Shown here piece after piece: positions 2,396-21,695 of a stretch of DNA of 64,000 nucleotides. A program made the position numbers and the translations under genes. Below the pieces are notes generated by a model, which saw nothing but the letters and a program-made list of their open reading frames with translations, ran no database searches and was not told the DNA's origin. The DNA is taken from NCBI GenBank assembly GCA_035461245.1, contig DATHVP010000062.1:3956-67955 (forward strand). Reading direction: 5' to 3'. Every line of letters starts with the position of its first letter. The stretch's first letter is position 1. The stretch comes from Longimicrobiales bacterium. GTDB taxonomy: Bacteria; Gemmatimonadota; Gemmatimonadetes; Longimicrobiales; RSA9.

Positions 2396-2551
2396 CACGG
2401 CGGCATCCTCCTGAAAGCGGTGTGTGGCCTGATGGTTCGACCGGCGGTTGGACTGCGGCCGCGGGGCGCGGCAGCCGACGCCATCAGGCGGTGGAATCCG
2501 GGGCTGAAACTCGGACGGACAGGGCCCGCTGTCAATGTATACAGACGAACC

Positions 2552-2595
2552 GGGATCGGGATCGGGATCGTAAACGTACGACGTAAACGTCAACG
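2552..2595 (-). repeat. Copy A of the ACGTTTACGATCCCSATCCC element (points toward the M14 carboxypeptidase gene)
   Basis: Plus strand GGGATCGGGATCGGGATCGTAAACGTACGACGTAAACGTCAACG. The core at 2558-2577 matches the other two copies at 19 of 20 positions. CGTAAACG is repeated with a 13-nt offset, as in copy B. Confidence 0.8.
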
Positions 2596-12720: not shown

Positions 12721-12752
12721 TATGGCATGCTCCTGGGAGGCGTGTGCGAGAA

Positions 12753-12862
12753 TGTGGACAACAGGGGGTCAGTTATCAACACGCGATTGTCCAAGATTCC
12801 GACATGTGGGTTAAGTCGTTGCTATGAAACGCGTTTACGAGTTGCCTACAAAATGTGGACAA
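12753..12862. promoter_or_regulatory. Cluster of DnaA-box-like 9-mers in a locally AT-richer intergenic region
   Basis: TGTGGACAA at 12753-12761 and 12854-12862, both inside the identical 11-mer AATGTGGACAA. TTATCAACA at 12773-12781. Weaker TTGTCCAAG at 12787-12795 and TGTGGGTTA at 12805-12813. Confidence 0.45.
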
Positions 12863-12880
12863 TTTGCCGTCGAGGGCCGG

Positions 12881-12910
12881 AAAAAGGGCTGCGACGGTGG
12901 GTCGCAGCCC
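12881..12910 (-). terminator. Intrinsic terminator of the parA-parB-M23-bactofilin operon
   Basis: The minus strand reads GGGCTGCGAC-CCACC-GTCGCAGCCC followed by TTTTT, 53 nt after the bactofilin stop. Confidence 0.75.
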
Positions 12911-12963
12911 TCGGAGAGCCGGTGATCCGGGCTTGCCCGGCCCCGTGGGACGGTTTGCCGGGA

Positions 12964-16599: not shown

Positions 16600-16615
16600 T
16601 GTTTCACGTGAAACA
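16600..16615. other. parS centromere-like site (perfect consensus)
   Basis: TGTTTCACGTGAAACA, a perfect 16-bp palindrome identical to the widely conserved parS consensus. It lies 3 nt after the stop of the upstream lipoprotein gene. Confidence 0.9.
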
Positions 16616-16655: not shown

Positions 16656-16671
16656 TGTTCCACGTGAAACA
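16656..16671. other. parS centromere-like site (one mismatch)
   Basis: TGTTCCACGTGAAACA matches parS at 15 of 16 positions, 56 bp from the first site. Confidence 0.8.
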
Positions 16672-16964: not shown

Positions 16965-16993
16965 CGTCCAGCAACGCGCGGCCGCGTCGAACG

Positions 16994-17036
16994 CCAGCAG
17001 GGGCGCCGGGATGGAGAATCCCGGCGCCCCTGCTGG
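16994..17036. terminator. Hairpin between convergent acyP and yidC (bidirectional terminator candidate)
   Basis: CCAGCAGGGGCGCCGGGA, 7-nt loop, TCCCGGCGCCCCTGCTGG. Perfect 18-bp stem with no long U tract. Confidence 0.55.
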
Positions 17037-19412: not shown

Positions 19413-19562
19413 CTACTGCTTGCGGCCGACGGAGACGACCAGGCGCTTGCGGCCGTGCTTCCGGCGACGATTCAGTACCCGGCGACCGGCCTTGGTCGCC
19501 ATGCGCGCACGGAATCCGTGCTTGTTCTTCCGCTTGCGGTTGTGCGGGCGGTACGTCGGCAT
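19413..19562 (-). CDS. rpmH: 50S ribosomal protein L34
   Basis: Not in the ORF track (49 aa). Own translation of the minus strand from ATG 19560-19562: [49 protein letters not shown], stop TAG at 19413-19415. Confidence 0.9.
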
Positions 19563-19599
19563 TCCCATATCGAGCACTCCATCGTTGGCAAAGATGTCA

Positions 19600-19629
19600 A
19601 TAATAGGGGGGGCAAGGGCATTTGGTCAA
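19600..19629 (-). promoter_or_regulatory. Candidate sigma70-type rpmH promoter
   Basis: The minus strand reads TTGACC (19629-19624), 18-nt spacer, TATTAT (19605-19600), about 37 nt upstream of the rpmH ATG. Confidence 0.55.
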
Positions 19630-19640
19630 CGGGGAGTTTC

Positions 19641-19683
19641 GGGATGGGGATCGTAAACGTTCAACGTAAACGGGATCGGGGAT
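19641..19683 (-). repeat. Copy B of the ACGTTTACGATCCCSATCCC element (points toward rpmH)
   Basis: Plus strand GGGATGGGGATCGTAAACGTTCAACGTAAACGGGATCGGGGAT. The 20-bp core at 19641-19660 is the exact reverse complement of 19735-19754. Confidence 0.8.
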
Positions 19684-19725
19684 ACCGCCGGTGGCACGAG
19701 GCGCCCGGGTTCTCGGCTATCCCGC

Positions 19726-19760
19726 GGAACGTTTACGTTTACGATCCCCATCCCGGATCC
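19726..19760 (+). repeat. Copy C of the ACGTTTACGATCCCSATCCC element (points toward dnaA)
   Basis: GGAACGTTTACGTTTACGATCCCCATCCCGGATCC, with the 20-bp core at 19735-19754. Confidence 0.8.
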
Positions 19761-19764
19761 GTCG

Positions 19765-19793
19765 TTGACTTATCCACAATCCTCGCCTAACGT
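19765..19793 (+). promoter_or_regulatory. Candidate sigma70-type dnaA promoter
   Basis: TTGACT (19765-19770), 17-nt spacer, TAACGT (19788-19793). An alternative is TTGACG (19802-19807), 17 nt, ATGCAT (19825-19830), which would give a near-leaderless mRNA. Confidence 0.45.
19770..19778 (+). promoter_or_regulatory. Perfect consensus DnaA box in the dnaA promoter
   Basis: TTATCCACA, exact match. It overlaps the -35/spacer of the candidate dnaA promoter, which is the classic autoregulation layout. Confidence 0.75.
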
Positions 19794-19832
19794 ACCTGCC
19801 CTTGACGCTGCAACCCTCCGGCGAATGCATAC

Positions 19833-21359: not shown

Positions 21360-21695
21360 ATCATCAGCGCGCCCGGCTCGTTCTGTCCGGCCTGAGAAGG
21401 CCGGTTCCGGGCGCGGCGGGGGGTGCGGATAACATGTGGACAGGGTGTGCGTCGTTGCCGGTTGATCCACAGAACGGCCGGGGCTGTGGAGAACAGCGGA
21501 GTTCTCCACGGGCCGTCCACAACGTGTCAACAGCGGGCATGCAGCGAGGATGTGTTGCGGCAGCGGGGATTCAGGTGCGAACGGACGCGTCGTCCACAAA
21601 CCCACAGTCCCTACTGTTACTGCTGGATATAGATATTAATAAAGAGAAGTCTCCTTTGCTGTGGAATACAGACAGCGCACTCAGGTGAGGGCTTC
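21360..21695. other. Chromosomal replication origin (oriC) in the dnaA-dnaN spacer
   Basis: Eight 9-mers match TTATCCACA or TTGTCCACA at 7-8 of 9 positions. Forward orientation: 21463-21471, 21502-21510, 21513-21521, 21590-21598. Reverse orientation: 21424-21432, 21435-21443, 21485-21493, 21660-21668. An AT-rich element follows at 21626-21650. Confidence 0.75.
21626..21650. other. AT-rich DNA unwinding element candidate of oriC
   Basis: GATATAGATATTAATAAAGAGAAGT has 20 of 25 positions A/T in an otherwise strongly GC-rich window. It is flanked by DnaA-box-like sites at 21590-21598 and 21660-21668. Confidence 0.65.

Follow-up and report, generated by a model that had tools for sequence, protein, structure and literature searches.

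A tandem-hexamer repeat inverted between the divergent rpmH and dnaA promoters of Longimicrobiales is probably not a dedicated control site

In a Longimicrobiales bacterium, the divergent promoters of rpmH and dnaA are separated by a perfect inverted repeat that was originally predicted to be one shared element through which a single factor co-regulates dnaA and the rpmH operon. Comparing the window (the whole stretch of DNA analysed, 64,000 nucleotides) with related genomes, we find that the repeat unit is dispersed, is gained or lost at orthologous sites, lies outside genes and varies in orientation, and that the inverted doublet can form a hairpin. From its sequence and distribution, the element is probably not a dedicated dnaA/rpmH control site, because that distribution is dispersed, extragenic and unstable, and also because it shows near-identical intragenomic copies, a GGGATG variant common to both arms and a hairpin-capable doublet whose spacer is not conserved. 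The reading that we adopt, with about even confidence, is that of a lineage-specific dispersed intergenic repeat that sits, as a REPIN-like doublet, in the one stretch that the two promoters leave free.

A perfect inverted repeat between the rpmH and dnaA promoters

Pfam assignments identify, on the minus strand, the genes for L34 (rpmH), the RNase P protein and YidC, with that for DnaA on the plus strand. In related loci a YidD gene is called between those for the RNase P protein and YidC, and dnaN lies 3′ of dnaA. The features of the intergenic region are as follows.

19562–19568, minus strand: two candidate rpmH start codons, ATG at 19562 (49 aa) and ATG at 19568 (51 aa)
19600–19629, minus strand: rpmH promoter TTGACC-18-TATTAT, from the promoter scan and from conservation in relatives with and without the element
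19630–19764, no strand: whole 135-bp spacer between the two −35 hexamers, an imperfect palindrome with 52-nt arms at 71%
19640–19660, minus strand: rpmH-side arm core, the reverse complement of ACGTTTACGATCCCCATCCCG; the plus strand reads CGGGATG GGGATC GTAAAC GT
19735–19755, plus strand: dnaA-side arm core, ACGTTTACGATCCCCATCCCG, of the 21-bp perfect inverted repeat
19765–19793, plus strand: dnaA promoter TTGACT-17-TAACGT, conserved in all ten related loci

The 20-mer ACGTTTACGATCCCCATCCC lies at 19735–19754 on the plus strand and its exact reverse complement at 19641–19660, in agreement with the original prediction in both coordinates and letters, and the perfect inverted repeat is one base longer than had been given, at 21 bp (19640–19660 and 19735–19755). 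The two 20-mers are 74 bp apart, and the arms extend to 52 nt at 71% complementarity (19640–19691 and 19704–19755), forming an imperfect palindrome centred at 19697.5 within a spacer centred at 19697. Folded as single-stranded DNA, the 135-bp spacer gives one long hairpin with a minimum free energy of −42.8 kcal/mol (z = −5.8). The direct repeats CGTAAACG and the GATC sites that had been noted in the element are both present, the latter numbering four within 116 bp. Both window arms carry a GGGATG variant, with the loss of one GATC, where a further copy in the window, upstream of an M14 peptidase gene, and the copies in relatives carry GGGATC.

This inverted repeat is far beyond chance, because 0.00 matches to the 20-mer with up to three mismatches are expected in the 64-kb window, where three copies occur, and because the longest perfect inverted repeat was at most 10 bp in 300 shuffles of the intergenic region and 6–10 bp in 48 unrelated dnaA upstream regions, two exceptions aside. 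An assembly artefact was ruled out as well, since separate samples, each assembled independently (L092, L093 and L095), show the same doublet.

The element had not been recognised as a known motif, and our searches of Rfam, plasmid and phage sequence bear this out. Rfam covariance models at a permissive E-value returned a spurious miRNA precursor as their sole match (26.9 bits against a gathering score of 137), and the 135-bp module, searched by distant-mode blastn in plasmid and phage sequences, had no match. Viral contigs searched with GGGATSGGGATCGTAAAC gave two identical chance matches, inside a 903-aa open reading frame of a phage with 41–42% G+C, while ACGTTTACGATCCCNATCCC, sought as an exact match in 185,579 species genomes, had six chance matches in unrelated phyla and zero in Longimicrobiales. 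A literature search on divergent dnaA/rpmH inverted repeats found nothing relevant.

The promoters are conserved and account for the mirror geometry

Their conservation in ten related loci indicates that the two core promoters, like the DnaA box, are real, and by the same comparison only this promoter pair and the DnaA box are conserved at the locus. Upstream of dnaA, all ten related loci carry TTGA(C/T)T-TATCCACA and, after it, a hexamer resembling a −10 element (TAACGT, for example), so that the predicted dnaA promoter with its DnaA box is borne out by conservation; the promoter scan had missed it. The DnaA box, a perfect TTATCCACA at 19770–19778, is part of the dnaA promoter, and 15 nt separate it from the right arm. 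Upstream of rpmH, where the promoter scan did call the predicted promoter, TTGACx-18-TAnnnT is conserved in 9 of 9 loci that include the rpmH side. The element was correctly placed upstream of both −35 hexamers, which are 11 and 10 nt away.

The mirror-image geometry, in which each 20-mer was said to end exactly 78 nt before the start codon it faces, holds on one side. The distance is 78 nt for dnaA, and for rpmH it is 78 nt only with the ATG at 19562, the better-supported start giving 72 nt. The rpmH start is ambiguous (19562–19577), and NCBI-style annotation takes the ATG at 19562 (49 aa); we favour the upstream ATG at 19568 (51 aa, MGMPTY...) because GGAG-N8-ATG-GGN-ATG at the rpmH start is kept in all ten related loci. 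For both genes, relatives that have the element and relatives that lack it show similar distances from the −35 hexamer to the start codon, and the near-equal distances are therefore a property of the promoter pair and not of the element. The exact 78/78 spacing, which hangs on the rpmH start call, was accordingly rejected as meaningful.

The 20-mer is the core of a tandem-hexamer unit

The 20-mer is the best-conserved part of a longer non-coding unit of 30–50 bp, (GGGATC)2–3(GTAAAC)1–4, often with GGATTC in front and with degenerate hexamers added. Because all copies fit one hexamer register, the unit can be described as a tandem-hexamer array with a variable number of repeats. Written from the GGGATC end, the copies read:

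Window, rpmH arm: GGGATG GGGATC GTAAAC GTTCAAC GTAAAC GGGATC ...
Window, dnaA arm: GGGATG GGGATC GTAAAC GTAAAC ...
Window, M14 copy: GGGATC GGGATC GGGATC GTAAAC GTACGAC GTAAAC ...
L092, rpmH arm: GGGATC GGGATC (GTAAAC)x4 ...
L093, rpmH arm: GGGATC GGGATC (GTAAAC)x3 GTAGAC ...

At rpmH/dnaA the core (GGGATs)(GGGATC)(GTAAAC) is kept across three species and the spacer between the arms is not. The 11-mer junction GGATCGTAAAC occurred zero times in ~1 Mb of unrelated dnaA loci, which served as negative controls and came from metagenome DnaA homologues with at most 67% identity among the matches listed.

The doublet is present or absent between the same promoters in close relatives

We compared nine related Longimicrobiales rpmH–dnaA regions (L007, L008, L009, L090–L094 and L096), together with L095, which covers the dnaA-proximal part only. 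Measured from one −35 hexamer to the other, the gap was 5, 37, 47, 47, 99, 135, 154, 162, 264 and 308 bp in ten genomes. The inverted pair is present between the same promoters in the window, in L092 and L095 (the same genome or nearly identical) and in L093, with perfect arms of 32 bp in L092 and 21 bp in L093, and the inter-arm spacers of the window and of L092/L093 are non-homologous. In L094, the closest relative of the window (DnaN 94% and YidC 84% identical), the rpmH–dnaA gap shows no trace of the inverted pair, and the −35 hexamers are 37 bp apart with both promoters kept. The pair is likewise absent from the gap of L096, where the −35 hexamers are only 5 bp apart (GGTCAA-TGCCT-TTGACT) and both promoters are again kept. 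Co-regulation of dnaA and the rpmH operon by a single factor through one shared element, as originally proposed, is not supported by these two genomes, which keep the promoters without the element. On the tree obtained from DnaN and YidC identities, ((window, L094), ((L092, L093), L096)), this distribution of the doublet requires either two gains, or a single gain and two losses.

In 4 of 4 genomes with a palindrome in the gap, the palindrome is centred within 0.5–2 bp of the gap centre, as expected if a palindromic module fills nearly the whole of a gap that was originally a few bp long. We looked for a target-site duplication and found no common direct repeat at the arm boundaries in the window, L092 and L093; the flanks of the empty sites in L094 and L096 are unalignable with those of the filled sites.

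By sequence comparison, the rpmH–dnaA gap is hypervariable even among very close relatives. The gaps of L008 (2667–2930, 264 bp) and L009 (2831–2929, 99 bp) are completely different despite 99.8% identical DnaA, and that of L008 contains direct repeats of the form CCGCAGT..CCCCGCCTTTC. In L007 (2624–2931) the gap is filled by a 308-bp near-perfect palindrome with 44-bp perfect arms, 55-nt arms at 95% and nested inner arms. This palindrome contains four GGGGCGGCTGGCGCGG blocks, which were found nowhere else among the fetched loci, and its sequence is largely unrelated to the window element, GGGATC-N6-GGGATC being all that the two types have in common. This same gap is filled by palindromes of two types, that of the window and the 308-bp one of L007, which differ largely from each other; on a further, unlikely reading, selection may favour a palindrome here that can extrude as a cruciform between the divergent promoters. 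The L095 contig starts in mid-palindrome, just upstream of the dnaA-side arm (1–121), consistent with assemblers breaking at repeated or inverted sequence.

Further copies lie in other intergenic regions

The two copies originally reported were an incomplete count, since a third copy with one mismatch lies 17 kb away at 2558–2577 on the minus strand, in the interval from the stop codon of the upstream gene (2611) to the promoter of the M14 peptidase gene.

2552–2595, minus strand: third, solitary copy of the unit; the plus strand reads GGGATC GGGATC GGGATC GTAAAC GTACGAC GTAAAC GTCAAC
2507–2535, minus strand: TTGACA-17-GAGTTT, predicted promoter of the M14 carboxypeptidase gene; the third copy lies 16 nt upstream of it

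The promoter pattern TTGACA-17-GAnnTT is conserved in orthologous loci without the repeat, and the copy is absent at the orthologous intergenic site in L097, L098, L099 and L100; L100 and L092 represent a single genome (100% identity across 6.5 kb). In L093, a copy at 1826–1860 lies 82 nt upstream of the parA start and has no counterpart at the corresponding position in L092 or the window. It equals the dnaA arm of its own genome over 28 nt, including the flank GAATCCGT where L092 has GAATCCCT, an identity that fits intragenomic copying.

Other copies lie at gene 3′ ends. Partial or degenerate ones directly follow the yidC stop in L093 (3356–3372) and L094 (5683–5725), in a convergent intergenic region, and a copy in L097 (19540–19585) directly follows the stop of the 2-oxoacid dehydrogenase E2 gene (E2-lpd) and points away from the next gene. 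Within the yidC 3′ copy of L094 (5683–5705) the GTAAAC units are inverted (CGTAAACG-TAAG-CGTTTACG) and form a small local hairpin, whereas the other copies are direct arrays. Just past the yidC stop in the same convergent region, the window has a long G+C-rich hairpin at 16990–17035 (CAGCAGGGGCGCCGGGATGGAGAATCCCGGCGCCCCTGCTGG), likely a bidirectional terminator, whose position is taken by hexamer repeat copies in L093 and L094.

All independent loci in the window and its relatives are intergenic. Across ~160 kb of clade sequence, the repeat fills the rpmH–dnaA gap in three of five genomes and occupies four other intergenic sites, a rough density of one locus per 25–40 kb of examined sequence. 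The outcome that had been named as telling against the original prediction, an element scattered in the manner of a REP or MITE, was thus approached in the window and its relatives, within the scope of these ~160 kb. Throughout the same sequence a second full doublet outside rpmH–dnaA was sought and none was found, only single arms; no transposase was linked to the element, and its status as a MITE is unproven.

The element adjoins a probable origin

The dnaA–dnaN intergenic region (21360–21695) contains seven DnaA-box-like 9-mers with at most two mismatches, followed by the A/T-rich stretch CTGGATATAGATATTAATAAAGAGAAG, and by these features is the probable oriC with its unwinding element. In the rpmH–dnaA region, the single box within one mismatch is the perfect one in the dnaA promoter. 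The element therefore adjoins the origin and does not lie inside it, and we ruled it out as part of oriC.

Two further observations concern this neighbourhood. Three DnaA boxes at 12753–12862 (TGTGGACAA, TTATCAACA, TGTGGACAA; spacing 20 and 80–81 bp) lie in the intergenic region 12721–12963 between a NIF3-family gene and a bactofilin gene, in a stretch that is locally less G+C-rich (58% vs 68%). This triad is kept with the same spacing in 7 of 7 related genomes checked, and is far better conserved than the hexamer element. It is a second putative DnaA-binding locus, 7 kb from dnaA, and could act as part of a split origin, as a titration or reactivation site, or in promoter control. Between parA and yidC there is a perfect parS site TGTTTCACGTGAAACA together with one single-mismatch site, at 16600–16615 and 16656–16671, and parS-like sites also occur upstream of parA in L092 and L093.

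Discussion

Under the dispersed-repeat reading, a 30–50-bp hexamer unit would be scattered in the intergenic DNA of one Longimicrobiales sub-lineage, and at rpmH/dnaA two such units, inverted around a non-conserved spacer, would make a hairpin-capable doublet like a REPIN or a small MITE. The doublet would fill the only dispensable DNA between the back-to-back promoters, and would for that reason be automatically centred and abut both −35 hexamers. The mirror symmetry would then follow from this gap-filling placement combined with promoter-to-ATG distances that are similar for both genes with or without the element. The repeat may spread or be homogenised by copying, whether by transposition, gene conversion or slippage, and the GGGATG in both window arms fits homogenisation from arm to arm. 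It would be dispensable for dnaA/rpmH control, and any effects on transcription, for instance through promoter spacing or adventitious protein binding, would be secondary.

A REPIN consists of two inverted REPs around a variable, hairpin-forming spacer, commonly of 71 bp in P. fluorescens SBW25, and is accompanied by decaying singlets (PMC3337134). By analogy, the architecture described here is closest to that of REPINs (Bertels & Rainey, PMC3337134, PMC3116915). Two inverted copies of a ~20-nt dispersed sequence, over-represented and extragenic in the ~160-kb sample, flank a 74-bp spacer (commonest 71 bp in SBW25) that is not conserved in sequence but gives a long hairpin with 21–32-bp perfect arms, and solitary, often more degenerate copies occur elsewhere, with presence and absence varying among relatives. 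Unlike REPs, however, which are defined by an imperfect palindromic core, the arms are variable-number tandem hexamers, and single arms folded as DNA (n = 5) gave z = −0.85 to +0.29 against shuffles. A classical REP was ruled out on this ground, and because single arms lack a palindromic core we do not file the element as a REP or REPIN. No RAYT transposase is known for the Longimicrobiales lineage, a literature search on Gemmatimonadota and RAYT found nothing relevant, and this host phylum lies outside those in which REPINs have been studied.

MITEs can be inserted near promoters, as are the Correia elements of Neisseria. The 116–135-bp non-coding module described here, which falls within the 50–500 bp of a MITE, resembles these in its 21–32-bp terminal inverted repeats and in its position immediately upstream of promoters. 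It differs in that the other family members seen here are single arms and not full-length copies at different loci, that no target-site duplication was identified and that no cognate transposase is known.

The alternative that survives best takes the hexamer array to be the operator of a putative DNA-binding protein with a small regulon comprising rpmH, dnaA, the M14 peptidase and, in some species, parA, a possibility that we consider unlikely but worth keeping in view. A ribbon-helix-helix repressor that coats contiguous short repeats would be one candidate type, and through the inverted pair a single factor could reach both divergent promoters, a generalisation of the idea in the original prediction. 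Operators of contiguous short repeats are known from the omega protein heptads of pSM19035 and the metboxes of MetJ. The arrays described here are like these in being contiguous 6–8-bp units of variable number and orientation just upstream of several promoters, variable repeat number being typical of such operators. The conservation of the core, and not of the spacer, at rpmH/dnaA in three species also agrees with an operator. So does the fact that, at gene 5′ ends, all four complete copies (rpmH, dnaA, M14 and parA) turn their GATCCC end toward the promoter, 7–16 nt upstream of the −35 hexamer or an equivalent conserved block; that these copies aim GATCCC at the promoter as an operator would counts against the dispersed-repeat reading. 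The turnover of binding sites is, moreover, not unusual at this divergence (YidC 80–86% identical), which also counts against it.

Against an operator, the array is not conserved at orthologous promoters of close relatives. It is missing from L094 and L096 although their rpmH and dnaA promoters are conserved, from the orthologous M14 promoters of L097–L100 and from the parA promoters of L092 and the window. Where a −35 hexamer is recognisable, its distance from the last GATCCC is unphased (7, 10, 11, 11 and 16 nt). Beside the four copies of uniform orientation there are three that run in reverse or sit at the 3′ ends of genes; orientation relative to neighbouring genes is mixed, and copies directly after stop codons point away from the next gene or lie in convergent regions. 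Identity of 20–32 nt between copies is far above what a binding site needs, and no binder is known. The originally proposed co-regulation of dnaA and the rpmH operon by one factor is likewise not supported, as the same unit occurs at M14, near parA and after the yidC and E2 stops in both orientations, its extra copies are missing at orthologous sites in sister genomes, and its distance to the −35 hexamer varies between 7 and 16 nt. The more specific proposal, in which an undescribed Longimicrobiales protein has (GGGATC)n(GTAAAC)n as its operator, recruited lineage-specifically to rpmH, dnaA and in some species parA, seems to us a little less likely still.

A further alternative relates the GGGATC repeats to the adjoining origin, either as low-affinity DnaA-ATP sites reached from the strong box or as sites for GATC methylation-dependent sequestration of the dnaA promoter. 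In E. coli, the dnaA promoter is autoregulated through a DnaA box and carries a GATC cluster, low-affinity DnaA-ATP sites contain GATC, and SeqA sequesters the dnaA promoter after replication; to our knowledge, SeqA does not occur outside Gammaproteobacteria. The likeness to E. coli lies in the consensus DnaA box in the dnaA promoter, kept in all ten relatives and here 15 nt from the right arm, and in the four nearby GATC sites within 116 bp. The GATC sites here, however, are part of a dispersed repeat which sister genomes lack, and a GATC is lost in both window arms. Only one 9-mer within one mismatch of TTATCCACA occurs in the rpmH–dnaA intergenic region, where an origin would have several, no GGGATC arrays occur in the probable oriC or in the DnaA-box triad, and the same arrays at M14, at E2-lpd and at the yidC 3′ end have no DnaA box in their vicinity. 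We regard this explanation as very improbable.

Least probable of all, and hardly to be expected, is that the element serves as an A/T-rich UP element contacted by the C-terminal domain of the RNA polymerase alpha subunit and boosting both promoters: in surroundings of 68% G+C, no stretch is richer in A/T than the GTAAAC hexamers, which are upstream of each −35 hexamer, but, measured from the predicted −10, they fall at about −57 to −70 and not in the UP-element position originally suggested, the UP zone (−40 to −56, with A/T-richness expected at about −40 to −60) being occupied by G+C-rich GGGATC sequence (−44 to −56), while relatives run the same promoters without such sequence, with the opposing −35 hexamer only 5–47 bp away, and some copies follow stop codons.

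Were the operator reading true, expression of the ribosomal protein, the RNase P protein and YidC, the supply of DnaA and chromosome partition would be coupled, and the array would offer a handle on a regulator of dnaA in a phylum for which nothing is known about replication control. If instead the element is a dispersed intergenic repeat, it would represent an undescribed small repeat family in a barely studied, uncultured order of Gemmatimonadota, one made of tandem hexamers and not of a palindromic REP core. The DNA between the back-to-back rpmH and dnaA promoters, which ranges from 5 to 308 bp among close relatives, would be a tolerated site of landing or expansion, and striking mirror symmetry beside dnaA need not denote a replication-control device, a caution for the annotation of such regions.
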